64,000 nucleotides of DNA from a virus. Taxonomy: Duplodnaviria > Caudoviricetes. The stretch lies in the IMG/VR virus record IMGVR_UViG_3300010883_000022, positions 1,251 to 65,250 of that record; one strand, given 5' to 3'. Positions 33,239 through 64,000 of this stretch are shown one piece after another (position 1 is the first letter of the stretch; each line of letters begins with the position of its first letter). The notes beneath the pieces were generated by a model. It was not told the DNA's origin, made no database searches, and was given only the letters and a program-made list of their open reading frames with translations. A program made the translations under genes and the position numbers.

Positions 33239-36200
33239 CTAACCGTTTAATATTGTTACTTGCTGACCTGCATCAATTTCACCACGGCGATAAGCACGAA
33301 TAGCCTCTGCCTTTGAAGAAAAAGTTCTAGGGCCTTTTCTATTCTTCTTTGTAGAGGCTGCGTACAAACCACCTGTATATTCCTGAGACGGCTTGTAATG
33401 CACATTAAAATCACGCGCTGAAAACAAATTACGAGATGGCATTAGTTTGTTAATCGCCTCGTCCACTGCACTTGATGATACAGGTACATGATACTGCATT
33501 GCATCCCCGTCAAAATCTGCGTTAAAACCCCCGACAATAAGCGGGCTTACCTGCATTGTGTCATTTTTTACCAGCTGAGGCCAGAAAGCCATAACACCAT
33601 ACCGATGAAGTACCGGCGCACGATTAATGACAACAGGACGCTTAGACATAATTTTGAGCAACTCTTTGCGCGCAACAGCAGAGCGATCCTTTACCGCACG
33701 TGCTGCATCTAACTTGGGAATACCGCGCCTACCCAGATCTCTAATAATAAGCGGCTGATAAACCTCCCACGCTTTTTCCTCAGGTATCCCAACTTGATCC
33801 ATATCCAAATCAGGATTAGGCGTGATAGCTGCCCTACCTACTAAGTCGGTCGTATTGCTCAGTAGCTTTCTTTGCACAACGCTGTATTTTGGATTTTTAC
33901 CGAAAACTTCCCGAAGGATCCCGCGAACTTGTTTTTCTTGAGCATCACTACTAATAGGATCTCCCAAACCCGTTACTGCTTTAAATGCATCATAAACAGA
34001 TAGCCGTTCTTCACCAATATCATCAGATTTCTTAGCGTTCTCGCGTAGAAACTTATTGGCTTCAAACAAATCTCGGTACAAGTAATTCGTGTCGGAAACC
34101 AGCTGGTTTCCTGAGCCTTGCATAACACTTATTGGACGAAATGCAGGGGGCAACACGGGTGCACGAGAAAGCATCCAATCCCGCGGATGTAGCTTCTGTT
34201 TCTCTGCGCCTTTAAAGTATCGCAAACGCTTCACAGCAGCATTACGCTTCTCACCTTTACTCGACTTGACATCTTCTCGCGCCTGCGCTGTTGCCTGCTT
34301 CAAGTTTATCTTATCCAACGCATGCGCAATTGCGCGAGAACCTGTCTGCCCCTGGAATTCTTGCTTACCGGATAAGATATCCCGGAAATTAGATTCCGTA
34401 AGCCCCAGCACGCGCATGATAGGTTCTTGCATTGCTGGGTTTGGCATAGGCTCAGCAAGACGAATAAACGACCACTTATTGCCACCGTGCCCGCCCGTCG
34501 CCGAAGGATCAAACAAACCACCCTTTAACGGCTTTAGACCCTGCTTCCAGTCGACAGTGTTGGAACCCGTAATCTCTCTATCGCCGGCTAACTTGGTTAC
34601 ATCTGCCTCCGTCATAGCCAACAGATGAGTGCGCGTTCCCTTCCGAACTGGGTTGATTCCCGCCGCCCGCAGCTGATTCACAAATTTCTCATAAACCATG
34701 GGAACCTTTGGTGTCGCGGGCTTGAACCCCGCCTGGAATGCCGACCAGTAATCAGGATTCATTTGTCCCCGAATCATCTTCGCGTCCCTGATAACCTCAG
34801 TAGCGCCATGCGAAAGCAACGCGTTAAGCTCAAGCATTCCAATCGTCTTAGCACCTTCCTCGCCACCTTTAGACGGACGCCCCTCTGACGTGTATCCCCC
34901 AAAGCTACGCCCTGTTCCCTTAGACTCGGCAACGTGGTGCAATTTCATGAAAAAGCGATTACCAACAAAGACATCATTAATCTGGCGCCCGTTAGTGGGG
35001 TCCGTAATCGTTTCCAGATCCTGTATATCATTTGCTTCAAGTTCGCGCATTGCGAACTCGGTGAGGTCTTCAATATTTTCAAAATCCTGGATCTTATATG
35101 GCTTCCCCGTCCGCTCTGCAATTTTACCAAGCGCCGCTTCTATCATTTGCGCAGGATTAGTTCGGCTAATAATACCGAGCGGATTTAACAATAGTTCAGA
35201 AGAACGACCATCAGCCGCTACGGGCATTTCTTCATCTGGAATGATCTCAGAGATAACGCCCTTATCACCGTACCTACCTGAAAGCTTATCGCCCACTTTT
35301 GCCGTAGCCGTAGACTTAACCGTAACTAGGATTCCGTGCTTGGTTTTGGCAACATCTGTGACAATGCCGGGCGCATGGTGGGACCACATTTGGGTTTTAT
35401 CAATGTACTTGGGGGCCCGCCCACGGGAGACCTGGTTAGCTGTCCGTTCTCGTTCTCGGACAACAAGTGCCAACGGATCTCCGCTGTTGACGGTCGTTCC
35501 TGGTTTAATGACTCCGTCATTGTCCATTTTCTCCAAAGTAGTGCGATCAAATTTGCCAGGAAACATAGCGGTGAAACCAGCCTTGCTAGTCCGCACCTTT
35601 TCCTCAGAAAAATCGACCGTGGTCTTGTACATATGTTGCGAAGACAACCGGTTAGCAAACGATTCACTAATAACAACGGCATCCTCGAAATTAAGGCCGC
35701 GAAATGGAACGTATGCTACACGTGCATTTAACCCAAGAGCCGTCGTTCCCTTGTCGTCTACGAAATTAGACTTAGCTAACAATGCGCCCTTCGGAAACCG
35801 CTGCCCCTTCTGAACAACAACATCCTGATGAATATACGTTTTACGGTTATATGGATAGTTGTCGTACAGCTCTATCGTCTCAACAGCACCGTTACCATAT
35901 TTAACAGTGATCTCATCTTTATCGACCTTCGTAACAACCCCGCCATGCTTTGCGCGAACGGCGCCCATTTTAGTTCCATACCGATTTTCAAAACTATCAT
36001 CCTCACCCGGAATACCCGCTTGAACCAACGGAGCTTCCGCATTATCCAGCGGGAGTGCTTGCGTTAACATCCTGGCCGCCATCACAGATCTCTGCGCCTT
36101 AGTTGCCGATTTCATCGGGATCATATTGGCAAGAAAAGAAAAAGCGCCCTCCATATGCGGAACCTCGTAATCAACCGCGTGAGGAGACACGTGCCGAACA

Positions 36201-37693
36201 GTGCCGCCAGACATGGCAGCTACCCGTGATTTACCCGATCGCAGCTCTCCTGGAAAAGCCACAACAGAAGACGTAATAGTCTCCGGGTCTCGCCACACCG
36301 TTTCACCGCTGCGAACATCTCGCATCTTTGTGTAAATCTTACCGTCCCGTCCTTTACGCGCATTACCCGCCATACGAAGATCGACGCCCGCACGCTCTGA
36401 CTCAGGGGTTATGATCGGATCAATGAAACCAAAGTGGCTGGACTGAACATTCCGCGCTTCCGCGGGCACACCACGTGCGCTCTGAATGCCGCCATCGCCC
36501 ATCTTTGAAACACGGCTTTGCTGCTCAAAGATTTGCGCAGGATTGATCCCTTCCAACGGCTGCGCCAGAGAACCAAACAACACCGAATCCAGGCTCTTAT
36601 TCATCAAGCCCGTACCAATACTCTGCACGTTTTTCTTAGATGTGGCTTTCCAAAGTGCGCGGTTAAGCAAACCTTTATTCTTGCCAATACGCTCTGCAAG
36701 CAAATCCTCAGGACCCAAAAAACGCATGAACGCCAAGGAGTCCCGATCATCAACCTCGGCCGGGTCTAATCCCAATTTAGCTAGTACAGCTGGATCCGCT
36801 CTATTCTGAATAGCCAATAGCTTCCGAGTACTAGCAAGTAAACTTTCAACAGTTACTCGCTTAGTTGGTTTACCCAGCGTCCGCTCTGTTGTTGCGGGAT
36901 CCAACTCCATCTTTGCAAATGCCTTAGCAATTGCTTCCTGGCGAGATCGCGCGTCCGTATCAACACCGCCGAGAACAAACTTCTTATAGATCTTCGCCAA
37001 GTCCGCTGGAGACGCCTTTTGCATATTCGCCGAGGCGAGCTCGCCCCAAGCTGTCTGTAGTTCCTTATCCGTCGCGCCCATTGCGCGGAGAATAGAAATC
37101 AAGGGGATATTCGCGTTACCTACGTTCGCCTTAAAAAGGCCCGTTGCGGGGTCCAAATGGATACGATGCGATAAACCCGTACCAGGCTTTACGTTTATGC
37201 TGGATTCAAGCTCGCCGTTTTCTTTTTCCCGATGATAAACTCCGGGTCGCAGTCGCATTTGATTAGACAACGTATACTCATTGCCGTTGCGGATAAACGT
37301 GCCGCGGCTAGAAAAGTAAGGCACCTGCGCAACCGTTGCGCGCTTATTATCAAGCACCGTCCCGGAAGCATTATCAACTAGCTGCCAAGTACCGCGTAAA
37401 CTACGGCGCAGGTTACGTTGCTCCAAAAGCGCGCGTTTTTGATCAGCGAGAGAAATTTCCTTCTCATCGTCGTCGTAATCTACGTCAACAAGTTGTAACG
37501 TATGCGTCTGGTTAGAAACTGGTTCAATCGCGCGCGCAGCTGCTCGCACATTTTCATAAATGCCGCGCCGCACCGCCGCAGAATCCCCAAATTCTCGAAG
37601 GCCTGCGGGCGCACGAGAGGAAGGCGCCAACGGCTTCGCGGGTGGTGTCACCAACGACGGGGGCGGATTGCGGGGATCAAGTACACTTGGCAT
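33239..37693 (-). CDS. rpoBC: RNA polymerase beta fused to beta-prime N-terminal half
   Basis: Beta: GTFIRNG, HFGFIDPIITPES, NFEDAVVIS, GDKLSGRYGDKG, NPLGIISRTN, MKLHH. Beta-prime: VLPPAFRP, NRAPVLHR, NADFDGDAM. One uninterrupted frame. Confidence 0.95.
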   Translation of the reverse strand: MPSVLDPRNPPPSLVTPPAKPLAPSSRAPAGLREFGDSAAVRRGIYENVRAAARAIEPVSNQTHTLQLVDVDYDDDEKEISLADQKRALLEQRNLRRSLRGTWQLVDNASGTVLDNKRATVAQVPYFSSRGTFIRNGNEYTLSNQMRLRPGVYHREKENGELESSINVKPGTGLSHRIHLDPATGLFKANVGNANIPLISILRAMGATDKELQTAWGELASANMQKASPADLAKIYKKFVLGGVDTDARSRQEAIAKAFAKMELDPATTERTLGKPTKRVTVESLLASTRKLLAIQNRADPAVLAKLGLDPAEVDDRDSLAFMRFLGPEDLLAERIGKNKGLLNRALWKATSKKNVQSIGTGLMNKSLDSVLFGSLAQPLEGINPAQIFEQQSRVSKMGDGGIQSARGVPAEARNVQSSHFGFIDPIITPESERAGVDLRMAGNARKGRDGKIYTKMRDVRSGETVWRDPETITSSVVAFPGELRSGKSRVAAMSGGTVRHVSPHAVDYEVPHMEGAFSFLANMIPMKSATKAQRSVMAARMLTQALPLDNAEAPLVQAGIPGEDDSFENRYGTKMGAVRAKHGGVVTKVDKDEITVKYGNGAVETIELYDNYPYNRKTYIHQDVVVQKGQRFPKGALLAKSNFVDDKGTTALGLNARVAYVPFRGLNFEDAVVISESFANRLSSQHMYKTTVDFSEEKVRTSKAGFTAMFPGKFDRTTLEKMDNDGVIKPGTTVNSGDPLALVVRERERTANQVSRGRAPKYIDKTQMWSHHAPGIVTDVAKTKHGILVTVKSTATAKVGDKLSGRYGDKGVISEIIPDEEMPVAADGRSSELLLNPLGIISRTNPAQMIEAALGKIAERTGKPYKIQDFENIEDLTEFAMRELEANDIQDLETITDPTNGRQINDVFVGNRFFMKLHHVAESKGTGRSFGGYTSEGRPSKGGEEGAKTIGMLELNALLSHGATEVIRDAKMIRGQMNPDYWSAFQAGFKPATPKVPMVYEKFVNQLRAAGINPVRKGTRTHLLAMTEADVTKLAGDREITGSNTVDWKQGLKPLKGGLFDPSATGGHGGNKWSFIRLAEPMPNPAMQEPIMRVLGLTESNFRDILSGKQEFQGQTGSRAIAHALDKINLKQATAQAREDVKSSKGEKRNAAVKRLRYFKGAEKQKLHPRDWMLSRAPVLPPAFRPISVMQGSGNQLVSDTNYLYRDLFEANKFLRENAKKSDDIGEERLSVYDAFKAVTGLGDPISSDAQEKQVRGILREVFGKNPKYSVVQRKLLSNTTDLVGRAAITPNPDLDMDQVGIPEEKAWEVYQPLIIRDLGRRGIPKLDAARAVKDRSAVARKELLKIMSKRPVVINRAPVLHRYGVMAFWPQLVKNDTMQVSPLIVGGFNADFDGDAMQYHVPVSSSAVDEAINKLMPSRNLFSARDFNVHYKPSQEYTGGLYAASTKKNRKGPRTFSSKAEAIRAYRRGEIDAGQQVTILNG

Positions 37694-52075: not shown

Positions 52076-52792
52076 CTACCACTCGATCCACCTAATATCT
52101 TCCTTTATAGAAAGTGCGCCCGGCTTGCTATACATGGGCCGGTAGTACGTGCAATCCGGGGCATAATAGTGCGTTACCTGACTATACCTTGTTGCGCCTT
52201 CACGAGTTATCTTAGTTCCGCCGTGTAGAAAATTAGAAGCCCAGATAAACGCCTGACCTTTGGAGCATGTAAATACCTTTGCTTCAAGATTCTCCCGCGC
52301 AATCACGCTTGCCATATAAGCCTCGTACTCTTTACAGGGCTTGCGCGCTTCTATTGGGGGTGGCACTACACCTACATCACTCATCACATACTCTGGCAAC
52401 CGGTGGCTGCCTGGATAATAGAACAACGGACCCTGATCTTCTTTAACATCCTCCAGAGCAACCCAAACGCCACACATGCGGCCAGCAGGAATAGTATTGA
52501 AATGAATTGTGTCACTGTGGGCAGGCTGCTCTGTCCCATACTTGAAGTTCATTGCCTGCCAAGGCTTCATCGGAAAGTCGTACAGCGCCTCAAGCGTTTT
52601 AAGAATCCGCGGAGCCAATACAATTTGCTTCACACAGTTGTAAATATGCACCAAATCATACATTCGCTTTGATTTAGAAGAAAAAGCAGAAGAAGTTACC
52701 TCGCGCGCCTCATCTAGCCAGTGCTCATCAATTTGCGGATCAAATACAAGATACCCATCACGGTCAAACCGTTGTTTTTCCGTCAACTCCAT
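52076..52792 (-). CDS. PhyH-family 2OG-Fe(II) dioxygenase
   Basis: FDRDGYLV, QPAHSD, WVALED...GPLFYYPGSH, LHGG...RYS. Confidence 0.9.
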   Translation of the reverse strand: MELTEKQRFDRDGYLVFDPQIDEHWLDEAREVTSSAFSSKSKRMYDLVHIYNCVKQIVLAPRILKTLEALYDFPMKPWQAMNFKYGTEQPAHSDTIHFNTIPAGRMCGVWVALEDVKEDQGPLFYYPGSHRLPEYVMSDVGVVPPPIEARKPCKEYEAYMASVIARENLEAKVFTCSKGQAFIWASNFLHGGTKITREGATRYSQVTHYYAPDCTYYRPMYSKPGALSIKEDIRWIEW

Positions 52793-53264
52793 TACTTGCC
52801 ACTCCTTGTGCGCCTGAAAGCTTCACAAACGCGTCTTCTATGTCCGAACAACTGGAATACCACTCATTTCGAATATGGTACTGCTTAAATTTGCTATGTA
52901 ACGCACGTTCCAGCGAGCGGCTGCCCACCACAAAGTACAATAAGCGCAAAGGATGCGCATTTGCCGTCGATAAAGTGCGCAAACGGCGTTTTGGATTTGA
53001 TGATAAGCCAATTTTAACCTCATCGGCCTGGTTGGCCATGAGATACACATATGTCTTAACTGTGCGCCGAGGAAGCGGCCGCCTTCGCAACAAACCAGCC
53101 ACCGCCTCATACATTTCACGGTGATGCCGCGACTCTTGCACCTGAAAAAGAGCCACAAGCGCATCGTACTCCGCTAAAAGCGCCACATCTTCCTTCTTTA
53201 TAAGCTCCGCGAACCTTCCACGAAGCTTATCCGCACGTACAGCGTAATTCCGTTCACGTTCCAT
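52764..53264 (-). CDS. GIY-YIG superfamily (T5orf172-like) protein
   Basis: YVYLM...VKIGLSSNPKRRL...LERALH...NEWY. Confidence 0.85.
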   Translation of the reverse strand: MERERNYAVRADKLRGRFAELIKKEDVALLAEYDALVALFQVQESRHHREMYEAVAGLLRRRPLPRRTVKTYVYLMANQADEVKIGLSSNPKRRLRTLSTANAHPLRLLYFVVGSRSLERALHSKFKQYHIRNEWYSSCSDIEDAFVKLSGAQGVASNGVDGKTTV

Positions 53265-54235: not shown

Positions 54236-54503
54236 CCGGCCCTTCCATCTCGTCCATTCCCTTTGGCAACTTCACGTCATACTCTACACCACACTTGGGA
54301 CATTGTACGTTACCAGGCACCACCATGAAGAACGTATTGTCGCTATCATGTGCGCCCATCTCCGGCGGAACTTCGCCCTCGTTCTCCTCTAGAAAATCAT
54401 CGAACGGCAACGGAGGCTGCGGAAATGCACCAAAGAACGATCGACGGCACCTGGGACAGTGCCAAGAGAACGCCCATTCGAGTTGTACAGTGGGACCAGC
54501 CAT
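54210..54503 (-). CDS. Small zinc-ribbon protein
   Basis: CPRC and CPKC. Confidence 0.7.
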   Translation of the reverse strand: MAGPTVQLEWAFSWHCPRCRRSFFGAFPQPPLPFDDFLEENEGEVPPEMGAHDSDNTFFMVVPGNVQCPKCGVEYDVKLPKGMDEMEGPDDEKYDDF

Positions 54504-56458
54504 TAAGCGTCCTTTTTCTCTACCGGTAGTTCATCAACAACTTCTAATGATAAGGACTCAAGTACCATTTCACACGGGCCTACGTGAGGATCAAAACGTA
54601 ATGCAGTTAGGGGATCGTCGGTGAAGAAGTGCGCCACATGCCGAGAAGACACCGAGTTTCCCTCTATCTCTAAACGGCAAGATTCGGGGGGCTTCTTTCC
54701 ACCTAGACCTGCCGTCGTCTCCCAATAAAAATACGCCATAACGTCTGCAGCAGACTTACAAACAATTACTACCCGTTTCCACCCTGCCGGGGCGGACACA
54801 GAAACACTCATTTGCGGATCCGCTCCCGCGCCAACGATTTTTACACCGTTAGGAAGATTGCTAAGACGTATGCCAAGCAAGCTCTTCCAAGAATCCCAGT
54901 CTTCTTCAGTTTTCCAATCCTTTACAACGGAATAAAATGGCGCACCTATATGCCAACACTCCATATCCCAATCCACCTTAACTATCTGCCTAAAAACATA
55001 CGGGCCCCGTTCTTTCGCTAATTCTATGAGGTGATCGAAAAACGCTCTCTCGTAATCCTGGTTGCCAGCGGCTAGATCCAACTCCCAGCCGGGCCGAATT
55101 ACGCGCAGTGTCGCCTCGTCAGGTACGTCAACAAATACAGATTGCTTCAAGCACTCCCGCCGCACGACAACACAACCAAAACCACCAGTTGCTGGGACCT
55201 CTACCACGCCGATCCCGGCACGATCCCGCCCCTTTCCTCGATTGCTACGATCGTGGACCACGTTAAAAAAATTGGCCGCGCGTTGATATCTAGATCTATG
55301 CGGCGCACTGACTAGTGCGACATGCGGACCCATGGATCGCAATAATTGTTCACAGACCTCTGGTACCGGCGGACGAATGTCATCCTCAAGGATCCAACAG
55401 TATGGCGTTACTAATATGCTAGATAAATAACAGTACATTTGCCGCATAGCTGCACGAACTTGCGCCTGCGTCTGTACACGGTCGTGGTCCGCTAAATTCG
55501 GCGGGCCCACCACATAACGAAGTAGTCGAACATCAGCGTAATCACAATCGGACACCCACGTGCGCACCGTTTCATGAAACGCGTCCGATTGACTTGTATC
55601 CATTAATACCAATTGGATTTGATCATGCGGCCAGGTTTGCTTCTCCAAAAACTCCGCTAAAGACGGCCACTGTTCACTGCGCCCAGAAAGCGGAATAAAC
55701 AATGTAATAGTTTCTGCAACCAAGTTGGCCAAATCAAAATAATGTTGCTCGTGATACGTTTGCGCTGCCAAGTTACCAGCACCCTCCCTCCAACACTTAT
55801 TCGACGGGGGAACGTGCTTTTGTAGGCGGAGGCGCTTGGCAGATCCTTCATGCTCTCGGTACTGATAAAGAGCGGGTTGTTTTACAGCCTGCCAGTAATA
55901 ACGCAAAACCCGCCGCCACATATACCAATCATCGTGAGAGTTAAGCTCAATCCGCACATTCCAAGCATCTGCATCCATTAACGCCGCACGCAATACGAGA
56001 GAGGCCGCGTGGATGTAGTTTACCCTCTGCAATAATTCACGATCGAACTGCTCGGGATACTTCTTATAAGCATCCGAAGCTCCAAAAGATTGCATGTCTG
56101 AGTAAACAACAGCAACATGCGGATCATTAAAGCAGGGCAACCCTGCAGATAAGTAATCTACAGGGAGGCGGTCGTCTGCGTCTAAAAAACACAACACCGC
56201 CTGTTCAGTAATCTCTGCGCCAATGCGCCGGTTTTCTTGCACGTTGCCCGTCGCAACTCGGTGGTACCTAACCCCACGATCGGCGAATACCTTTGCTACT
56301 TCCGGCGTATCGTCTGTGCTCGCGTCATCGATTACGACTATCTCCTTCGCCGGCCGTGTTTGCATCAAAACACTAGTGATAGCTTCCGCCAGATACCTAC
56401 CGTAATTGTGGCAGATAATCACAACCGATACGTCAAGCACGTCACTACGAACACTCAT
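54503..56458 (-). CDS. Double-domain GT2 glycosyltransferase
   Basis: CHNYGRYL, IDDASTD, FLDADD; second domain ILEDD, GFGCVVVRR. Confidence 0.85.
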   Translation of the reverse strand: MSVRSDVLDVSVVIICHNYGRYLAEAITSVLMQTRPAKEIVVIDDASTDDTPEVAKVFADRGVRYHRVATGNVQENRRIGAEITEQAVLCFLDADDRLPVDYLSAGLPCFNDPHVAVVYSDMQSFGASDAYKKYPEQFDRELLQRVNYIHAASLVLRAALMDADAWNVRIELNSHDDWYMWRRVLRYYWQAVKQPALYQYREHEGSAKRLRLQKHVPPSNKCWREGAGNLAAQTYHEQHYFDLANLVAETITLFIPLSGRSEQWPSLAEFLEKQTWPHDQIQLVLMDTSQSDAFHETVRTWVSDCDYADVRLLRYVVGPPNLADHDRVQTQAQVRAAMRQMYCYLSSILVTPYCWILEDDIRPPVPEVCEQLLRSMGPHVALVSAPHRSRYQRAANFFNVVHDRSNRGKGRDRAGIGVVEVPATGGFGCVVVRRECLKQSVFVDVPDEATLRVIRPGWELDLAAGNQDYERAFFDHLIELAKERGPYVFRQIVKVDWDMECWHIGAPFYSVVKDWKTEEDWDSWKSLLGIRLSNLPNGVKIVGAGADPQMSVSVSAPAGWKRVVIVCKSAADVMAYFYWETTAGLGGKKPPESCRLEIEGNSVSSRHVAHFFTDDPLTALRFDPHVGPCEMVLESLSLEVVDELPVEKKDA

Positions 56459-58983
56459 TATGCGTCTCGCCGGGTTAAAATTGTCAGGGCAGGAGCACGC
56501 ACAGTTTTGTGAATACTAAACTGAGGATACTTAGCAGCGATTGCAGTATGCACAGTACGATTATCCTCTATGACGTATACAAAGTTATCAGCTAAATGCT
56601 CGTAAAAACTATGTAATGTCATAAGAGCTGTTTCATCGGAATGGTACCCGTCGTCAGCCACGTACTTAACCTTGCGCCCCCTAAGAATCTTTTTCAAGTA
56701 CGAAGAGTTATCAACAAACTGATCGTACTCAGTTAGTTCAAGGTTATTATTCTGAAAAGCACCCTGCGCCTTTAGTGCGGGCAAGTTCTCTTCCGCGTAA
56801 GAAATATCAATATCAAGACCATAAACCGGATTAGCAGGAAACAGGTCCGCTAATGCTGCAAGCCCTGTCCCCTTCAGAATACCGACCTCAACAACAACAT
56901 CGGTATCATCTTTTTCCAATATGCTGGGTAAGTGCGCTGCATACTCATATGCGTACTTACCCAGGAGCATACGCTCTCCACCCCAGTTCTCCACTGACAC
57001 AGGCGGAGACGGCTCACTCGGGCTGAATTTGCGCCTTTTCACCTGGCGACCGTATAAAGGATGTGCGCCGCTTTCGGGGGCAGTCTCGGCACTAAACTCG
57101 TACATATAACACTGCTCTAACGTTATCAGCTTACAGGCAAGCTCCCACCGTGAAGACCCCTCCGTCGCACCGCAGTACTCAAAGTATTCTTCAAAAGCGA
57201 TCTTCGGGCGCTGTGCTACAACAATATCTTGACCAGTAAACGGGGGTACACACGCCGATTTACCGTCCACTTGTTCCATCAGAGATGCATGGCGACTCAC
57301 ACGATCCGGATCTACGCCGCTCCAACTACCAAAAAATAAATGAATTACATCTAGTTCTGTGTCCTTGTATAGCTTGCAATGCGCCGCAGCTGCATAGCCC
57401 AGGCAAGCTTCCGGGTCGGGGCGGCCGGCGTTATCCGGTCGCGATCGATGGTACCCGGCCCAAGTGTGTGGATACTCTGGCATACGAACAAACTGAAATG
57501 CTGATACATCTTCTTCCATCCGTTTCTGCACCCCATCATCTAACAGAAAACAAGAAGCTAACACACACCCGCCGGGACGAAGCACGCGCCTGATTTCTTG
57601 TAAATAATTCGCTACATCTGCCGGAAACATGTGCGTAAAAACAGAAGCAAGAAAAATAACATCAAAAGACTTATCATCAAATGGAAACGCGTACTTCGAT
57701 GGGCTATCTCCACACCCGTCCCGCCTATACGCAGCATTCGTGACGTCTGCATGAAAGAACCGCAGGTTAGGCCGCCGTGAAGTTATATTATGCGAGTGCC
57801 AATCAACCATATCTTCATTTACTTCTACTCCACAATATGACCCTGCAGGGCTTATATAATCCCACAAGACACGAGCTGTACGGCCAGCACCAAACCCAAG
57901 TTCTAATACATCAGAAGAAGGCGTTAATCCCGCATATTTTTTTAGGTACCCGCACCACTCTTCCGAAACACCGTATCGCTGCTGGATATCCTTATGAAAC
58001 AACAAGCCTCGATCGCTCGTAGGCCACAAGTCCATTGGGATATCGCGAGCGCCTGGGCTGTACTCTTCGTACAAATTCACATAATGCCGTGCGATATCCC
58101 GCGTCATATCCACAGCAGGAGATTCCGCTGCATGCTGCCCGTAACCACTACCGCCTGCCTGCCACAAACGCTGCACAAATCCCGGCAAATCAGGGCTCTC
58201 AATACCCCACTCTAAATACTCAATCAAATGCGCGGGCCTGGCTCCGTGATAATGCACTATGGGAGCTGCCTCAAACACGCCCATCCACGGACGCCAGTTA
58301 AATGTTCGGCGTAAAAACTTGATCCGCTTATCAAAGTGCTGGTTAATAACCCCCTCGTTCCACCCGCTCCCAATACTCCCCCACTCAAACCGCTTTGACG
58401 TAGCTACAAGTGCATCAAACTCCCGTATCCACGCTTGTACATTAATCAGCAAAACTCCAGCATTAATGTAGCGCCGTGACTGCGGCTTGGGACCGACTGG
58501 CCAACAAGATGCCTTCCCATAGCTAACACCTGCAATAAACTCGGGCCGCTCGACTTGAAGCAAAGGCACTGGATCCCGCTGAAAGATGACGTCCGTATCG
58601 GTGTAGAGGATGTAGTCCTCTTCCGGAAACAGCCCGGGTACGTCAAAGCGCATAAAGGTCCCGCAAAGCGATTGCGCAACGAACTGCAGTGGCAATCCCC
58701 GGGGGTTCTTCGGGGTAGGTGCACCAGGATCCGGCCAGAACGTCGGATCATCTGCGAGAGAGAACCTTTGCTGGATGCAGCGAACATCATGCGCTGCTAA
58801 GAAATCCAGGAATTCCGGTGCGTCCCCGTCATACATCACTGCGATGTCCAAGGACGTATTTGCGCGTGCCGACTGAATAGCCGCCATCGCCATCTCTACG
58901 GTCGGTGTGATGATCTTTTGCGGATTGTAGCACACGCCCCTAAATGGACGAGTGCCGTCTGCACAGCACATTACCCATAACAT
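56458..58983 (-). CDS. GT8-like glycosyltransferase fused to two SAM methyltransferase domains
   Basis: LYTDTDVIF, INAGVLLIN, IVHYHG; VLELGFGAGR...SVFTH...RVLRPGG; VEVGILKG...DDGYH. Confidence 0.85.
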   Translation of the reverse strand: MLWVMCCADGTRPFRGVCYNPQKIITPTVEMAMAAIQSARANTSLDIAVMYDGDAPEFLDFLAAHDVRCIQQRFSLADDPTFWPDPGAPTPKNPRGLPLQFVAQSLCGTFMRFDVPGLFPEEDYILYTDTDVIFQRDPVPLLQVERPEFIAGVSYGKASCWPVGPKPQSRRYINAGVLLINVQAWIREFDALVATSKRFEWGSIGSGWNEGVINQHFDKRIKFLRRTFNWRPWMGVFEAAPIVHYHGARPAHLIEYLEWGIESPDLPGFVQRLWQAGGSGYGQHAAESPAVDMTRDIARHYVNLYEEYSPGARDIPMDLWPTSDRGLLFHKDIQQRYGVSEEWCGYLKKYAGLTPSSDVLELGFGAGRTARVLWDYISPAGSYCGVEVNEDMVDWHSHNITSRRPNLRFFHADVTNAAYRRDGCGDSPSKYAFPFDDKSFDVIFLASVFTHMFPADVANYLQEIRRVLRPGGCVLASCFLLDDGVQKRMEEDVSAFQFVRMPEYPHTWAGYHRSRPDNAGRPDPEACLGYAAAAHCKLYKDTELDVIHLFFGSWSGVDPDRVSRHASLMEQVDGKSACVPPFTGQDIVVAQRPKIAFEEYFEYCGATEGSSRWELACKLITLEQCYMYEFSAETAPESGAHPLYGRQVKRRKFSPSEPSPPVSVENWGGERMLLGKYAYEYAAHLPSILEKDDTDVVVEVGILKGTGLAALADLFPANPVYGLDIDISYAEENLPALKAQGAFQNNNLELTEYDQFVDNSSYLKKILRGRKVKYVADDGYHSDETALMTLHSFYEHLADNFVYVIEDNRTVHTAIAAKYPQFSIHKTVRAPALTILTRRDA

Positions 58984-58987
58984 AATC

Positions 58988-59401
58988 CTAGGGCCACTCC
59001 ACGATTCCTAACGTTGACAACCACGGCAACATGGCCGTCCAGTACAAGAGTGTACTAGTAATCAGAAAGTAGTGCCAATAACGCCTCTTCCAGTTCAAGA
59101 AATACAGAAACAAAAGCGGGTAAATACACAGCCTACTTATCCAAAGAGACATGTAGATACCAAAGTACTTAATACAAAGGCTCATAGGCAGGAACGTTTC
59201 GCGCTGCCAATCATTTCCAATGTATTGCCTCGTAAGCTGCATATCGAGAGCGTGTATCACTACAAGTAGAAACACAAATAATAGCGAAATAGTTTTTGAT
59301 GGTCGGAAATTGTCATCCATGACAGAACCCGCGGTTGGAATAGGTCTAGCACACTCCCGATCTGGCGCGTCGTAATAACGCACCATCTCTTTCGTAACCA
59401 T
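58988..59401 (-). CDS. Multi-TM membrane protein (DUF5658-like)
   Basis: Three hydrophobic helices, LD..LT...E..P pattern. Confidence 0.55.
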   Translation of the reverse strand: MVTKEMVRYYDAPDRECARPIPTAGSVMDDNFRPSKTISLLFVFLLVVIHALDMQLTRQYIGNDWQRETFLPMSLCIKYFGIYMSLWISRLCIYPLLFLYFLNWKRRYWHYFLITSTLLYWTAMLPWLSTLGIVEWP

Positions 59402-59424
59402 TCACAGCGTCCTCCTTGACCCTG

Positions 59425-59766
59425 CTAGTGAACAAAAAGAAAAGGAATATAACTACAAAGAACGACTATCTGCACAATGATCAATGCCCATATTACGATG
59501 CCCAAGTTCTTGTAACGGCGCGCTCGAATCGCCGCGCAAATAAGCAGCGTGAGCGCGGTTCCAAATGTCTTGAAACCTACAAGAAGAGCAACACCGCCCC
59601 CATCCAGGTTAATGAGGTACTTGGCCATTGGATTCAACTCTACAGGACCTAGAGCGAATCCGGCACGCGCAGACATGTAGCTATCAAACGAGGAAATACC
59701 TGCAACGAGCACCATTGCAAGCCAAAAGGGGAACGCTTTCTGGAATAACTTAGACATTACTGGCAT
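59425..59766 (-). CDS. Multi-TM membrane protein (DUF5658-like)
   Basis: FDSYMS...ELNPMAKYLI, three TM helices. Confidence 0.6.
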   Translation of the reverse strand: MPVMSKLFQKAFPFWLAMVLVAGISSFDSYMSARAGFALGPVELNPMAKYLINLDGGGVALLVGFKTFGTALTLLICAAIRARRYKNLGIVIWALIIVQIVVLCSYIPFLFVH

Positions 59767-59800
59767 CCTTGCCCCGAGGCAGCGTCCTTGCCGCCTACGA

Positions 59801-60157
59801 TTAAGTGTCTGTATCTACATCATCAGTTATCTCTTCCTCAAGTATTGCTTTTTCATACCACCGGTAGACACGCCCGTAAGCGGTCTGCCACGCTGTTCCA
59901 TGGTGTGCTGTTTCGCAGAACCAGGACAGTACATGCGCGTACTCATGAAGTAGCACATGTACGTCCCGCTCTGCTCCATTGCTTTTACGGACAATAATAA
60001 CGAAGCGAGGATTAGGTCCGTCCTCTATGTACTGGCAGGAACCATGGGAGCTGTATCCCCTTTTTAATCGTACGTGTACCGTATGACCTGTGGGTAAATC
60101 TTCCCGTAGTCTCTTAGATACTTCGTAGAAAAACGCATATTTGGGATCTCGTGGCAT
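59801..60157 (-). CDS. Small HExxH zinc metallopeptidase-like protein
   Basis: LLHEYAH...HHGTAW. Confidence 0.75.
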   Translation of the reverse strand: MPRDPKYAFFYEVSKRLREDLPTGHTVHVRLKRGYSSHGSCQYIEDGPNPRFVIIVRKSNGAERDVHVLLHEYAHVLSWFCETAHHGTAWQTAYGRVYRWYEKAILEEEITDDVDTDT

Positions 60158-60192
60158 CCTTGCCTCCTGTGATAACCCACTACACTACTCCG

Positions 60193-60327
60193 TTAAAATA
60201 AAAACCGCTCCCACCAACCTTGCTTAGCTCCTATGAGATATAAACCAACTAACGCGCCGCCAATAAGGGCAGCCCGCCGAATAATCCGATGCTTCTTCAA
60301 AAACGCTAGTACAGGTCCATCAGCCAT
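60193..60327 (-). CDS. 44-aa single-TM protein (MADGPVLAFL...)
   Basis: SD AAGGAG; read manually. Confidence 0.65.
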   Translation of the reverse strand: MADGPVLAFLKKHRIIRRAALIGGALVGLYLIGAKQGWWERFLF

Positions 60328-60353
60328 TACCTAGCACTCCTTTGTGCAATAAG

Positions 60354-60602
60354 TTACTCCTTAGGACTACGAGACGATTTATCGAGCTGCTTCTCCAAAC
60401 GCTGCATAATCGCAGTGTTCGCAGAGATCACCTCCGTACAATTAGCAACTAACTCCTTTAACGTAGATGTGTAATCTTCTTCCAGCAAAGAAATGCGCTC
60501 GCTCATACGCGTTTCACGCTTCCACCCCTGCCAAGTAAAAAACACGACAAGAGCAACCATGATCCCGAACTCACGCAGAACCTCCATAAATGCTATATCC
60601 AT
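60354..60602 (-). CDS. TM plus coiled-coil protein (BhlA/holin-like architecture)
   Basis: EFGIMVALVVFFTW followed by heptad-rich tail. Confidence 0.55.
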   Translation of the reverse strand: MDIAFMEVLREFGIMVALVVFFTWQGWKRETRMSERISLLEEDYTSTLKELVANCTEVISANTAIMQRLEKQLDKSSRSPKE

Positions 60603-60906
60603 ATGTCGCTCTCCTACGCTTCCTTGCGATGATAAATACCCAAACCCCTCGGATACCCCTCCCCAAGGTCCATTATGAATGAAGGGCTACTCCATTCAAC
60701 CTGCGAAGGCATTCTAATGCCACAACCCCCGCTCTCCTCCCGCCGAACAGTCTTAGCTAACGACGGTTTCCCGAGCACGTAAGCCGCATCCTGCGAAGTC
60801 CGTGCTCCCTAACCTGGTGGTGACTCACCAAACCTGGGTATCTAAATTCTACCTTTTCGATCCACGAGACGGAATTATAAGGCCAAAGAGTGCGCCATTA
60901 CACAGG

Positions 60907-61122
60907 CTACGGCCACAATTCAGGCGAAAATTGAACACTTATATACGGCGCACACCGTGCACATATCTCAATCTTATCATGCGCATAGTCATCTAGTGGT
61001 TTCTTATAATCACAATGAAACTCACAAACAAAGCAACGGGCAGCAATGTGCGCAATGCCCCGGCGTACCGATACAACTGCATTGCGCCCGGGTTCTAGTA
61101 GCTTGTCGTCGCTTGGCATCAT
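60907..61122 (-). CDS. Small Cys-rich protein
   Basis: SD AAGGAGGT; CFVC and CARC. Confidence 0.65.
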   Translation of the reverse strand: MMPSDDKLLEPGRNAVVSVRRGIAHIAARCFVCEFHCDYKKPLDDYAHDKIEICARCAPYISVQFSPELWP

Positions 61123-61134
61123 ACCTCCTTTAAC

Positions 61135-61962
61135 TCAACGATACTCTGGGTGCCCGTCTGAGGAAAACTCAGAACGTATGTCACATCCGGAACTTGTAAA
61201 TTGTAATGCAGCGCCCGTCTTTAACGTGTGTGCCATCGCAGAAAAGCTGCTGAACTCACTTCCAATAATATGATCTGTGCGCGCAAGCAAGTACAAATCT
61301 GCAAGTGCCTTTTGCATAGACTCCTTCGAATGCCATTCGTAAGGATTTTGTTGGTGGTGAAATGCGCGTCCCGGAAAATGCTCTGCAAGCAACGACACAA
61401 CCCGCTCCTCCTCAGCAGATACAAACACCTCTGCCTGCGGAAATCGCTGGAAATACGCTGAGAGATTATCGATAAAGCTGTCAACTGATGAACGCTTACT
61501 CGTTACCGGGTGGGCCCGTATGGTGCGTATAGACACGCCGACAATCTGCTCTGCTTCGTCAATGGTTGGTAACAAGTTATCTATTAAAGCCTGCACAGGT
61601 TCGCTTGGGGTAAACTGCTTGGCGTACTGCCCAATACCCTCTATCAATGCTGTGCAGAAAAAGAAATACGAAGATACCTTTACGCGGTGCGCTTCTCCCG
61701 GAGACTCCTCCCACGGCACAGTCAAAGGCCCCAATGCGTGCCAATCTTCTGCAGAAACTTGCGCCCAATTATTGGACCACAAATCACTAAACGATGCTTG
61801 CGGGCTTAAGAACCCCCCTGAAAACTTAGCAGTACCCTTCTCAGGCGGCCAACAAACTACAAGGCGCCGATCGTCCCGCTGACATATAGCCAACGCAGAG
61901 CAAAGTGCGCGCCACCTGTTACATAGCCCGGCATGCGCATAAACCCACAGCTCTCGTTGCAT
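61135..61962 (-). CDS. Fucosyltransferase-like (NodZ/GT-B) glycosyltransferase
   Basis: AGLCNR, VGVSIR, ALADLYLLARTDHIIGSEFSSFS. Confidence 0.8.
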   Translation of the reverse strand: MQRELWVYAHAGLCNRWRALCSALAICQRDDRRLVVCWPPEKGTAKFSGGFLSPQASFSDLWSNNWAQVSAEDWHALGPLTVPWEESPGEAHRVKVSSYFFFCTALIEGIGQYAKQFTPSEPVQALIDNLLPTIDEAEQIVGVSIRTIRAHPVTSKRSSVDSFIDNLSAYFQRFPQAEVFVSAEEERVVSLLAEHFPGRAFHHQQNPYEWHSKESMQKALADLYLLARTDHIIGSEFSSFSAMAHTLKTGAALQFTSSGCDIRSEFSSDGHPEYR

Positions 61963-62549
61963 TAGATATCCTTGGGATCCTTCCTACTCTCTTCAACAGA
62001 TTTGCGCGACACCCTGTTCATAAGGTACAGCTCGTTAGAAAGCGTCATCATACGAGCAAAAGCATCAGCATCTGCCGCCTCCATGAAACACATATTATGC
62101 GGTAACACATCCACGTTAGACTGGCCGCGTAGAACTGACCCCGGCGCATCCTCCATATGGTGCACCACCATACCCGTATTTACAGCACGCCGCTCAGTTT
62201 TTCCATCCACCCCCGCGTAAGGGCCTGGGCCATAGATGCTCCAGAATATGTCTATCTCGTCTGGAGGTGCGCCTGGAGGCCAATAACAAATAGGCGCTGC
62301 AACATATGCCGTAGGATCCCCGTCGAACCTGGTCTGGCGCTCTACGTGCACTGCCGACAGTATCTGCATATGTACCTGCTTGTAATTCTTCGGTGTGCAA
62401 ACCTGCCGAAGATCACAAATCAGATCCAATAATGTATCACCTTCGTGCTGCATCCGTTCAGCCCCCGGTGTAAGAGAGAATGGTGTTATATCCATATACC
62501 TATTATACAGCCCATATCGTTCCTGCTCGTAGGACAGACCCGGGCCCAC
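61962..62549 (-). CDS. Hypothetical protein
   Basis: 195 aa; TAATG overlap downstream; start uncertain. Confidence 0.65.
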   Translation of the reverse strand: MGPGLSYEQERYGLYNRYMDITPFSLTPGAERMQHEGDTLLDLICDLRQVCTPKNYKQVHMQILSAVHVERQTRFDGDPTAYVAAPICYWPPGAPPDEIDIFWSIYGPGPYAGVDGKTERRAVNTGMVVHHMEDAPGSVLRGQSNVDVLPHNMCFMEAADADAFARMMTLSNELYLMNRVSRKSVEESRKDPKDI

Positions 62550-62563
62550 AAACCCTGATAGCT

Positions 62564-62607
62564 AAAAAAAGGACCGGATCCCTGGCCCGAAGGCCAAGAA
62601 TACCGGG
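62564..62607 (-). terminator. Rho-independent terminator with C(UUCG)G loop
   Basis: TTCTTGGCC-TTCG-GGCCAGGGA stem followed by T7. Confidence 0.8.
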
Positions 62608-62614
62608 CATGAAC

Positions 62615-62842
62615 TCAACCCTCCAGCTTCACAAGCCGCTCAACGATTTCCGCTTCCAGCTTCAGGATCCGGGCTGTGGAAGTTGCTGCCAGCTTCAGCG
62701 CCCGGTCGTTGGCGCGGTTCAAATCGGACTTGGTGTAGTGCAATACATCGCGCAGTCCATCGATAGCGAAGTACAGGTAAACAATCCAGGACGCCACGCC
62801 ACCAACCACAGCCAAACAGATCAGAAATACAAAAAACGTCAT
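62615..62842 (-). CDS. TM plus coiled-coil small protein
   Basis: SD AAGGAG; hydrophobic N-terminus. Confidence 0.7.
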   Translation of the reverse strand: MTFFVFLICLAVVGGVASWIVYLYFAIDGLRDVLHYTKSDLNRANDRALKLAATSTARILKLEAEIVERLVKLEG

Positions 62843-62872
62843 TGTACTGCTCCTTTTCTTGGGACATAAAAA

Positions 62873-62949
62873 AACGACGGTGAGGGTTTGAACCCCACGA
62901 CCTTTGTGTTCTTGTGATTACAATGCTCTCTCTTAATGCTACTTTCGTT
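62873..62949 (-). pseudogene. Degenerate tRNA / tRNA-like element
   Basis: 77 nt; T-arm TGGGG-TTCAAAC-CCTCA, GTAGC...AGAGC D-arm remnant, AGGTC variable loop, partial acceptor stem; no canonical anticodon loop. Confidence 0.6.
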
Positions 62950-62991
62950 CTTAATATATAGTGACGCATTTATGCCGTTTGTTTAGTGCAT

Positions 62992-63022
62992 AAAAAAAGC
63001 GCCACCCTATGACAGGTGACGC
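62992..63022 (-). terminator. Rho-independent terminator downstream of the structured region
   Basis: GCGTCACC...GGTGGCGC followed by T7. Confidence 0.8.
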
Positions 63023-63049
63023 CTTGTTATGCATAACAAACTGTTAAAT

Positions 63050-63389
63050 GCGGACTAGATTAATGCAGTCTGCCCGTGTCACGATTCGTGGAAGAAGGAA
63101 GGAAAACCACAAACCATATTCGCGGCGTCGACTTGGCGCTCGATCGGTTGGGTAGGAGTGCTACCCCGGTAAAGCTAAAACCCGCGCGCATTAATCTGGG
63201 ACCACAGGCACTTCCGGGTGATTACTCTGAGAAAGGGTTAAGCAAAGTAATCGTGGTCCGCAGGAAGCTAAACGGAAAAAACCGGTCGTGGCGTACCGGG
63301 ACATCCGTGTCCCTCCCTGGATTCGGGAGTGTAACTTATAGCTCACGAACCCTTGTGCGCTCTAAGTGCCAAACTCCCCACTTGTCCGC
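63050..63389 (-). ncRNA. Candidate ~340-nt structured ncRNA, family unassigned
   Basis: End-closing helix, several nested 5-10 bp helices, two 7-bp cross-domain pairings, downstream terminator. Confidence 0.65.
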
Positions 63390-63401
63390 GTGACCTCCTT
63401 A

Positions 63402-64000
63402 TTAAATAAGTCCGTTGGGAAACTGTTGTTTCAAGATCTGGAACATCTTTTGCTGCGTAGCCGGATCATTGATCCCCTTCAGCCCCAGGATGGAAAAATT
63501 AGGCGGGTTGGAATTCATTGCATCGTTAAGCATCTGTTTTTCCAGATCTTCCATCCCTCCTACTAGCTGCTGCGCTACTTCACCTGCTCGCGGACTATTC
63601 ATAGCTGCGGCTAGTGCTTCAGGGTTCTCAACAAGCGCCGTTACTTCGTCCGGATCTACTGTCCCGTTGCCGTCAGCATCACCAGGTAAGCCGCCCTGCT
63701 GGCCGCCCTGCTGCTGACCCTGCTGTTGCTGGCCTGGCTGTTGCTGACCCTGCTGTTGCCCCTGGTTATAAGCATCTAGCCGCTGCTGAACTCCTTCTTC
63801 TCCGATTGGCTCCCCTTGGCCATCATCTGGCGTACCCATTACACCATCAGGACCGGGAACAACCTCAGGACCAAGAAGAGATGCCTGCTGCAACTTCTTC
63901 AGCTCTTCCGGATCCATCGACGGAAGAAGCGCGTTAGGCTCGCCACCGGTCGTACCTGGCTGTGTACCTGGCTGTGTACCTGGCTGTGTACCTGGCTGTG
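63402..64000 (-). CDS. 3' part of a Gln/Gly/Pro-rich protein that begins beyond the window
   Basis: Frame stays open from 63917 to 64000; TQPG repeats, poly-Q, DADGNGTVD motif. Confidence 0.75.
   Translation of the reverse strand, partial: QPGTQPGTQPGTQPGTTGGEPNALLPSMDPEELKKLQQASLLGPEVVPGPDGVMGTPDDGQGEPIGEEGVQQRLDAYNQGQQQGQQQPGQQQQGQQQGGQQGGLPGDADGNGTVDPDEVTALVENPEALAAAMNSPRAGEVAQQLVGGMEDLEKQMLNDAMNSNPPNFSILGLKGINDPATQQKMFQILKQQFPNGLI
63953..64000 (-). repeat. 12-nt coding tandem repeat (TQPG)n, at least 4 copies
   Basis: TACCTGGCTGTG x4 to window edge. Confidence 0.95.

Follow-up and report, generated by a model that had tools for sequence, protein, structure and literature searches.

Does a gene-free gap close to one end of a phage genome fragment harbor the gene for a large structured RNA and, if so, what kind of RNA would it be? 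The fragment, from here on called the window, is the whole stretch of DNA that was analysed: 64,000 bases that run to the end of an IMG/VR record of 65,250 bases, estimated to be 31% complete. A preliminary description made from its letters alone had proposed an RNA of about 340 nt at positions 63050–63389, with a closing helix, several nested helices and two loop-loop pseudoknots.

Large RNAs with complex folds are rare, and most of the understood ones are ribozymes or the cores of major cellular machines. The orphan RNAs ROOL and GOLLD, 'ornate' RNAs that are common in phages and prophages, have sizes of ~500–800 nt and tRNA genes are their frequent neighbours. The pRNA of phage phi29, a family contained in Rfam, serves as an oligomeric scaffold on a protein machine. 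Bacterial RNase P RNA is characterized by helix P4 with the conserved motif GAGGAAAGUCC (CR-I) and its 3′ counterpart strand, and by S- and C-domains; tmRNA is characterized by a tRNA-like domain of acceptor and T-arm, a 3′ CCA and a frame for the tag. In the 3′ processing of M1 RNA the terminator is lost from the mature molecule. For ROOL, GOLLD, OLE and raiA, unexpected architectures were shown recently (PMC12286853, PMC12968392).

Materials and methods

Relatives of the locus were sought via a 195-aa protein encoded two genes downstream of the element. This protein has 13 relatives in the protein collection, and their alignment was scanned against metagenome contigs. The element was aligned in three sequences, the window and the loci L005 and L006 (alignment A3), and the consensus fold was calculated by RNAalifold. 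A covariance model (R1) was derived from the 137 best-conserved positions, covering domain C plus the hairpins D1 and D2. Contigs of RNA sequencing runs were mapped on positions 61500–64000; the four runs, from four studies, were chosen because they contain the stretch.

Genomic context of the element

All plausible genes of the window are located on the minus strand, and the features described below are on this strand as well unless stated otherwise. PHROG matches in the window include RNA-polymerase beta-subunit-like proteins, a DNA-polymerase exonuclease subunit and a homing-endonuclease-like protein. These matches, together with the marine origin of all sequencing runs that contain the stretch 62980–63420, point to an uncultured marine jumbo phage as the source. 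Even in the nearest isolates the large RNA-polymerase-like protein is no more than ~31% identical. A 1484-aa protein (33239–37693) matches several phage RNA-polymerase beta-subunit PHROGs and has phrog_25354 in common with a 624-aa protein (29316–31190). The homing-endonuclease-like reading frame is situated at 52764–53264; a homing endonuclease interrupts the homologous polymerase gene of the Vibrio phages D181 and D148.

The gene-free gap that contains the element comprises 559 bases between the stop codon of a G/P/Q-rich protein gene (63402–63404) and the start of a 75-aa membrane-protein gene at 62842. The upstream frame ends with TAA TAA, 13–18 nt before the closing helix P1. Its product is a large low-complexity protein (63402–64000 in the window; 590–2977 in L006, 795 aa) with repeats rich in G, A, P and Q, a hydrophobic stretch that is rich in glycine and a motif of the DADGDGK type, and it matched no family in Pfam or PHROG. 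The window ends in tandem repeats coding for QPGT, from which the contig break at this point may stem. Glycosyl- and methyltransferases and proteins without a known family constitute the neighbourhood, with no evident partner protein among them. Farther away, positions 54503–62549 are occupied by a run of glycosyltransferase and methyltransferase genes plus one for a SprT-like protein; a GT2 enzyme, a GT8 enzyme fused to two methyltransferase domains and an O-fucosyltransferase-like protein are among the members. This composition suggests a phage glycan- or protein-modification module.

Structure signal in the single sequence

The seven complementary segment pairs named in the preliminary description are all exact Watson-Crick complements, and the three hairpins at 63150–63166, 63282–63299 and 63298–63313 are all present in the window sequence. 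In 63050–63389 there are seven perfect stems of at least 7 bp, compared with 2.3 ± 1.5 in 500 dinucleotide shuffles (fraction reaching seven, 0.01), and one 10-bp stem, compared with 0.03 in the shuffles (fraction 0.032). The z-score of the minimum free energy is −3.61 for the minus strand within these boundaries, which were chosen by the preliminary description, so that the single-sequence statistics are somewhat flattering; over a wider segment of 376 nt it is −2.29 for the minus and −1.81 for the plus strand. The structure signal in the single sequence thus moderately exceeds chance.

Relatives and distribution

The scan of metagenome contigs with the alignment of the 195-aa protein yielded three loci, two of which (L005 and L006) reach far enough upstream. 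The element is present in both. They can be aligned with the window over the whole stretch between an AAGGAG immediately behind the upstream stop codon and position 62953, terminator included, with identities of 77% for L005 and 72% for L006 (blastn, window 63340–62958). These values are as high as those of the flanking coding DNA (70–79%). The upstream gene and the RNA occur together in three of three loci; the C-terminal parts of the upstream protein diverge among them while the RNA is kept. The gene directly downstream of the RNA is a different one in each of the three, and the 195-aa gene further down is common to the loci.

No relatives were found in IMG/VR by scans with flanking proteins or with DNA patterns taken from the invariant RNA blocks, scans from which the record of the window itself may have been omitted, and blastn gave no match among GenBank phages. 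Three IMG/VR relatives with a 47–52% identical RNA-polymerase-like protein contain neither the RNA, as judged by blastn, nor the flanking proteins. The model R1 finds only the window's own copy (E 8.2e-44), with no match at E up to 10 in three more distant IMG/VR relatives, two of them near-complete genomes. Since R1 finds nothing in these, the RNA family seems confined to a narrow phage clade. A pattern scan over 185,579 species genomes returned a single hit, L008, in which only the 21-nt pattern itself matches and which was taken as chance.

A conserved four-domain fold

The consensus fold of the three sequences consists of 94 base pairs, and 95.7% of 280 cells are paired. Changes on both sides were counted at 19 pairs, compared with 9.3 ± 2.0 in shuffles, none of 500 of which reached 19, in a control that ignores the relatedness of the sequences. 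When the partners were slid by 1–3 columns, only 1–3 pairs were changed on both sides. Compensation is exemplified by GGACCAC/GUGGUCC, which becomes GGGCCAC/GUGGCCC, and by GGGAGU/ACUCCC, which becomes GGGAGC/GCUCCU. Folded individually, L005 and L006 give z-scores of −2.74 and −5.37, respectively, and the same domain plan, with P1 closing four domains. Taken from the comparison of three related sequences, these are strong indications, as distinct from formal covariation of the R-scape type, that the fold is conserved and covarying.

The structured core of ~335–340 nt (63050–63389) is bounded by P1, in which the 5′ strand GCGGAC (63384–63389) pairs with the 3′ strand GUCCGC (63050–63055). Its six pairs are all kept in the three sequences, with one change from C-G to U-G. 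Domain A (63323–63380) is a hairpin with the outer stem GGGAGU/ACUCCC and a tip of variable length; its helix 2 has 12 pairs, 100% of them paired and two changed on both sides. In the window the tip is longer by 21 nt (63341–63361), a gap in both relatives in A3, although the stem below the tip is kept. Domain B (63261–63319, helices 3–5) contains the purine-rich CAGGGAG paired with CUUCCUG, a pairing replaced in L006 by the compensated CAAGAAG/CUUCUUG, and the inner hairpin 63282–63299 with a conserved GCCAC loop. Domain C (63199–63259) is composed of two stacked helices, helix 6 with eight pairs (one changed on both sides) and helix 7 with 10 pairs (four changed on both sides), together with a conserved apical loop of 12–13 nt, UUAA.C.CUUUCU, and the conserved internal loop CCCGGAAG.GCCU. 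Domain D (63057–63197, helices 9–14) is closed by the 10-bp helix 63188–63197/63057–63066 (helix 9), with two pairs changed on both sides and three on one side, the latter all being G-U pairs on the minus strand. It comprises the hairpins D1 (63168–63182) and D2 (63150–63166), a conserved single-stranded joint (63134–63149) and the long hairpin D3 (63067–63133). The apical loop of D3 consists of C and U only (63090–63106); its sequence drifts among the relatives and stays C/U-rich.

Most of the helices proposed for the window alone are thereby recovered from the relatives. The closing helix, the 10-bp helix, 63199–63205/63253–63259 and 63325–63330/63373–63378 are conserved in both, most of them with covariation, and 63220–63226/63246–63252 is conserved likewise and really extends to ~10 bp. 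Two of the three hairpins, 63150–63166 and 63282–63299, are found in the relatives too; 63298–63313 is not conserved.

The two pseudoknots fared differently. For the pairing of 63233–63239 with 63348–63354, the partner lies inside the 21-nt insertion and is lacking in both relatives. In the pairing of 63207–63213 with 63364–63370, two of the seven pairs, a middle and a terminal one, are lost in both relatives without compensation, the variable base being U, A or C, and positions 63364–63367 are used by the conserved stem of domain A. A large share of the unpaired bases in loops and joints is invariant, comprising UUAA.C.CUUUCU, CCCGGAAG.GCCU, GGGUUUUAGC and CGA.CGA.CGC. Among such conserved unpaired segments many alternative long-range pairings can be drawn; among the candidates in the three sequences are a pairing between the C/U loop of D3 and the purine strand of domain B, and one between the GCCAC loop and GUGGC.

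Strand and coding potential

The preliminary description had noted G-U pairs that form on the minus strand only, and both the G-U asymmetry and the consensus energy assign the RNA to the minus strand. The consensus energy amounts to −103.6 kcal/mol for the minus and −77.3 kcal/mol for the plus strand. There are 32 G-U cells and one A-C cell in the minus-strand structure, compared with 12 A-C cells in the best structure of the plus strand.

Reading frames of 37–105 aa can be drawn on either strand of the region. A 37-aa frame with its ATG at 63304 had been considered as an alternative explanation; its start codon is absent from both relatives, and 1–2-nt indels are distributed throughout the alignment (11 of 12 indel blocks). 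Frames of at least 40 aa common to the loci were found on neither strand. In L005 (865–900) and L006 (2986–3021), an ATG stands at the proper distance behind the conserved AAGGAG and opens an 11-codon frame, the same in both (MRMSWGAWHSI), that runs into domain A; in the window this ATG is missing through a 2-nt deletion.

Transcription, terminator and flanking elements

The stretch 62980–63420 is present at least partly in 20 marine runs from 16 studies, six of which are RNA libraries. In the DNA runs, 93–100% of the words of the wider stretch are present; roughly 14 further marine runs contain 35–54% of the sampled words. Contigs of all four mapped RNA runs lie on 63050–63381: one of X5 (63050–63378, depth 23.7), one of X6 (63075–63380, depth 26.3), one of X9 (63055–63281, depth 16.6) and two of X13 (63055–63205 and 63231–63381, depth 2 each). 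On the 2.5 kb there is one contig besides these, a 151-nt piece of X5 with depth 2. Five of the six mapped contigs are at least 99% identical to the window, and one of the six is located on a flanking gene. The uncovered flanks (61500–63049 and 63382–64000) were not counted as a higher level of the RNA relative to neighbouring mRNAs, as contig gaps prove nothing. The contig ends agree across studies, within 3 nt at the high end (63378/63380/63381) and within 5 nt at the low end (63050/63055/63055). These coincident ends are a weak hint at a discrete RNA, as contigs show neither strand nor level nor true ends.

The contig ends coincide with the closing helix, except that the 5′ strand of P1 is 3–6 nt outside every RNA contig. 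Either this strand (63384–63389) belongs to the precursor only, or the 5′ bases were lost in library making; loss of the last bases at the 5′ end is a property of second-strand synthesis. One of two variant positions in X13, 63116 (A to G on the plus strand), changes a U-G pair with 63082 into C-G. The X5 contig contains adapter read-through at 63378, which would give the strand only together with the library chemistry.

A strong minus-strand terminator, as had been predicted, was found by the terminator scan, though with its stem-loop at 63025–62996 instead of 62992–63022. It has a 12-bp stem, a 6-nt loop and a U-run (62989–63025 in total). The same scan detected the homologous site in L005, and by eye the stem is kept with changes in L006. 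The terminator is located ~25 nt downstream of the RNA, and the A/U-rich spacer in between contains a small palindromic hairpin that is itself A/U-rich, UUGUUAUGCAUAACAA (63024–63039); in L006 the stem of this hairpin is kept and the loop changed. On the other side of the RNA, the AAGGAG between the upstream stop codon and P1 (63395–63400) is invariant in the three sequences and could be part of a promoter, a relic ribosome-binding site or a processing signal.

Directly after the terminator follows a block conserved in all three loci, …AUGCACUAAACAA..GGCAUAAAUGCGUCACUAU (62953–62988), which occurs once in the window and may serve the downstream genes as promoter or operator. It repeats UUAUGCA and GCGUCAC, which are also found in the spacer and the terminator. 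Sigma-70-like promoters were not detected in 61500–64000.

Two further segments drew our attention. At 62880–62898 (with flanks, ~62870–62905) the hairpin GUGGGGUUCAAACCCUCAC is followed by CGUCG and a U-run, resembling a tRNA T-arm with the 3′ acceptor strand. ARAGORN called no tRNA here, and L005 and L006 lack the segment, for which a tRNA remnant, the relic of an attachment site and a second terminator are all conceivable. At 62552–62600, 49 nt are 98% identical to L006, at loci that are otherwise ~72–75% alike. They contain a GGCC-UUCG-GGCC hairpin as well as a stem with a U-run that resembles a terminator, and an invariant TATAAT (62502–62507) stands ahead of the 195-aa gene. Together these could form a conserved terminator-promoter unit or another small RNA element.

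Comparison with known RNA families

The preliminary description had left the RNA without assignment to a family, and this was borne out: 4227 models of Rfam 15 gave no match over the 64-kb window at gathering thresholds. At E up to 10, five weak matches were obtained in 62300–64000, none of which overlaps 63050–63389. Another five were obtained in L005 and L006; two mutually inconsistent ones overlap the RNA in L006, at 25.5 and 16.7 bits versus thresholds of 62 and 42, and none overlaps it in L005.

ARAGORN called neither a tRNA nor a tmRNA in the window, L001, L005 or L006, and the neighbourhood of phage tRNAs that had been brought up for comparison with ROOL and GOLLD is therefore not found here. 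The absence of tmRNA ends and of the RNase P motif was confirmed by ARAGORN and motif searches. For tmRNA, neither a T-loop motif within 3 mismatches nor an ACCA end was detected, and for bacterial RNase P RNA the CR-I motif was absent within 3 mismatches from all three sequences and no model matched at E up to 10. A group I or II intron was rejected because the TAA TAA before the RNA leaves no reading frame to be interrupted and no intron model matched; splice joints were not seen in the RNA contigs, which can miss them. Membership in ROOL or GOLLD was dismissed on account of the lack of a family match, the size of ~335 nt and the count of zero tRNAs.

The suggestion that a strong GGA hairpin might bind CsrA did not hold up. 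The hairpin in question, 63298–63313, is the one that is not conserved, and only three GGA triplets are common to all three sequences (alignment columns 11, 22 and 191, two inside helices and one unpaired; window total, seven), whereas a CsrA/RsmA sponge would present numerous GGA motifs in hairpin loops, preserved among its homologues. CsrB and RsmZ share with the element only a proposed mode, that of an abundant RNA titrating a protein.

In common with ROOL and GOLLD, this RNA is a large orphan of several domains that is carried by a phage, has no known protein partner and keeps many unpaired bases conserved; unlike them it has about half their size or less, no tRNA genes nearby and no Rfam match. 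The plan of the gene, in which a folded RNA with paired ends is followed by an A/U-rich spacer and an intrinsic terminator, is that of rnpB (M1 RNA), ssrA and ssrS, whereas neither sequence nor structure matches theirs and their defining motifs are absent here. With the phi29 pRNA and the T4 species 1 and 2 it has in common that it would be a stable phage RNA that is neither a tRNA nor an antisense regulator. Those RNAs have no sequence relationship to it and are much smaller; for the pRNA family no Rfam match was obtained here, and species 1 and 2 lie in a tRNA cluster, unlike the present RNA. According to PMC12968392, the raiA motif RNA is abundant, has a complex fold and is of unknown function. 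The likeness extends to these features, whereas raiA is bacterial and widespread and this RNA comes from three phage loci only and has no Rfam match. ROOL, GOLLD and OLE form homo-oligomeric RNA-only complexes, as stated in PMC12286853, and by analogy the phage RNA could work as a homo-oligomer as well.

Discussion

The element is, in our judgement, very probably a real, structured and expressed RNA. The earlier proposal of an unassigned functional RNA with tertiary structure stands with respect to the unassigned RNA, which has a conserved fold and no Rfam match, but not with respect to the tertiary pseudoknots. Because of the compensatory changes at 19 pairs, the lack of a conserved reading frame and the contigs in four of four RNA runs, we regard it as a new structured noncoding RNA family, on the basis of three sequences and contig-level RNA evidence. 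The novelty is relative to Rfam, as distinct from the marine 'psRNA' sets that Shi et al. reportedly described in 2009. No description of this RNA was found in the literature searched; the catalogue of IMG/VR candidate RNAs in PMC10690425, which could still list a fragment of it, has candidates that average 67 nt and required a match to at least 3 IMG/VR regions.

On balance we lean towards the view that the RNA has a gene of its own, is stable and belongs to a new family, and that its transcript is trimmed and acts in trans via its fold. The primary transcript would arise by read-through from the upstream gene or from a start shortly ahead of P1, and would end at the intrinsic terminator. A cut in the A/U-rich spacer and trimming as far as the base of P1, in the manner of cellular stable RNAs, would then yield an RNA of ~335 nt that outlasts the neighbouring mRNAs. 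The most speculative step is the last one, that the RNA might act in trans by virtue of its three-dimensional fold, as a scaffold or decoy that binds proteins or as a self-associating RNA particle, with contacts made through the invariant loops and joints and the exposed C/U-only loop. We hold the scaffold or decoy mode to be tentative and somewhat less than an even chance. The C/U loop (63090–63106) could bind a purine-rich RNA or a pyrimidine-tract-binding protein; alternatively, the purine strand of domain B, which in L006 changes together with the loop, could be its partner in a duplex or a triplex. The many invariant unpaired bases in loops and joints make us favour a fold-dependent role over an antisense role, and that the directly downstream gene differs in three of three loci speaks against a leader of one particular gene.

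The RNA might instead have no role of its own and be the stable leftover of a 3′-UTR element of the upstream G/P/Q-rich gene, which would block 3′ exonucleases or direct processing. Its start ~20 nt behind the upstream stop codon, the lack of a sigma-70-like promoter in 61500–64000 and the joint occurrence with the upstream gene in all three loci would fit. A terminator hairpin alone, however, would protect the mRNA, a covarying four-domain fold of 94 pairs far exceeds that need, and the RNA is kept where the C-termini of the upstream protein diverge, so that we consider this explanation unlikely. More unlikely still is a cis-acting leader, an attenuator or a sensor of the riboswitch kind, by which read-through of the terminator at 63025–62996 into the downstream genes would be controlled. 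The order of structured RNA, terminator and same-strand genes, the conserved block after the terminator and the many invariant unpaired bases, which could form a ligand pocket, are what such a device would display. Yet the gene it would control directly differs from locus to locus, no riboswitch family was matched in Rfam, and at 335 nt the RNA exceeds the known riboswitch aptamers in size. A candidate anti-terminator, GACGCC (63125–63130) with the 5′ strand of the terminator, is absent from L005, and by eye no conserved one was seen; that the RNA-run contigs stop short of the terminator is a weak point against it too.

The two remaining explanations would deny that the family is new or that there is an RNA at all. 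Size and the joining of the ends in P1 recall RNase P and other stable RNAs, and GUGGG at 63381, the high end of the contigs, resembles the 5′ consensus of group II introns. That the RNA is a far-diverged representative of one of the known classes (RNase P RNA, tmRNA, group I or II intron, 6S, ROOL or GOLLD), missed by the Rfam models, is nevertheless very improbable, given no overlapping Rfam match at E up to 10 in the window, no call by ARAGORN, CR-I and T-loop motifs absent within 3 mismatches from all three sequences, and two stop codons ahead of the RNA in place of an interrupted reading frame. Least of all do we expect that there is no RNA and that the stretch is a DNA-level element (an origin, a packaging or a protein-binding site), a set of chance helices or a small-protein gene. 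Single-sequence statistics that are only moderate and the frames of 37–105 aa would leave room for this, but the G-U pattern, which is asymmetric between the strands, and the compensatory changes indicate selection on an RNA, the stretch is present in contigs of RNA libraries, and starts and frames of the reading frames are not conserved.

The stand-alone gene for a stable RNA therefore remains our preferred reading, and the novelty claimed is that of an RNA family, the claim concerning the family and not a mechanism. A bolder idea, doubtful as we judge it, is that the element is the founding member of a new class of ~335-nt, four-domain phage RNAs made in quantity during infection by marine jumbo phages. 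Such RNAs would work by their own tertiary or quaternary structure, as a ribozyme or as a particle, of RNA alone or of RNA and protein, by which a host factor is captured, e.g. via the pyrimidine-only loop and the invariant joints. The reading of a single sequence located the RNA gene to within a few bases. The phage that carries it encodes its own multisubunit RNA-polymerase-like proteins, and the RNA adds to the orphans one further with a conserved fold and a hint of expression in the field, a target for structure determination and for the study of phage-host RNA biology.
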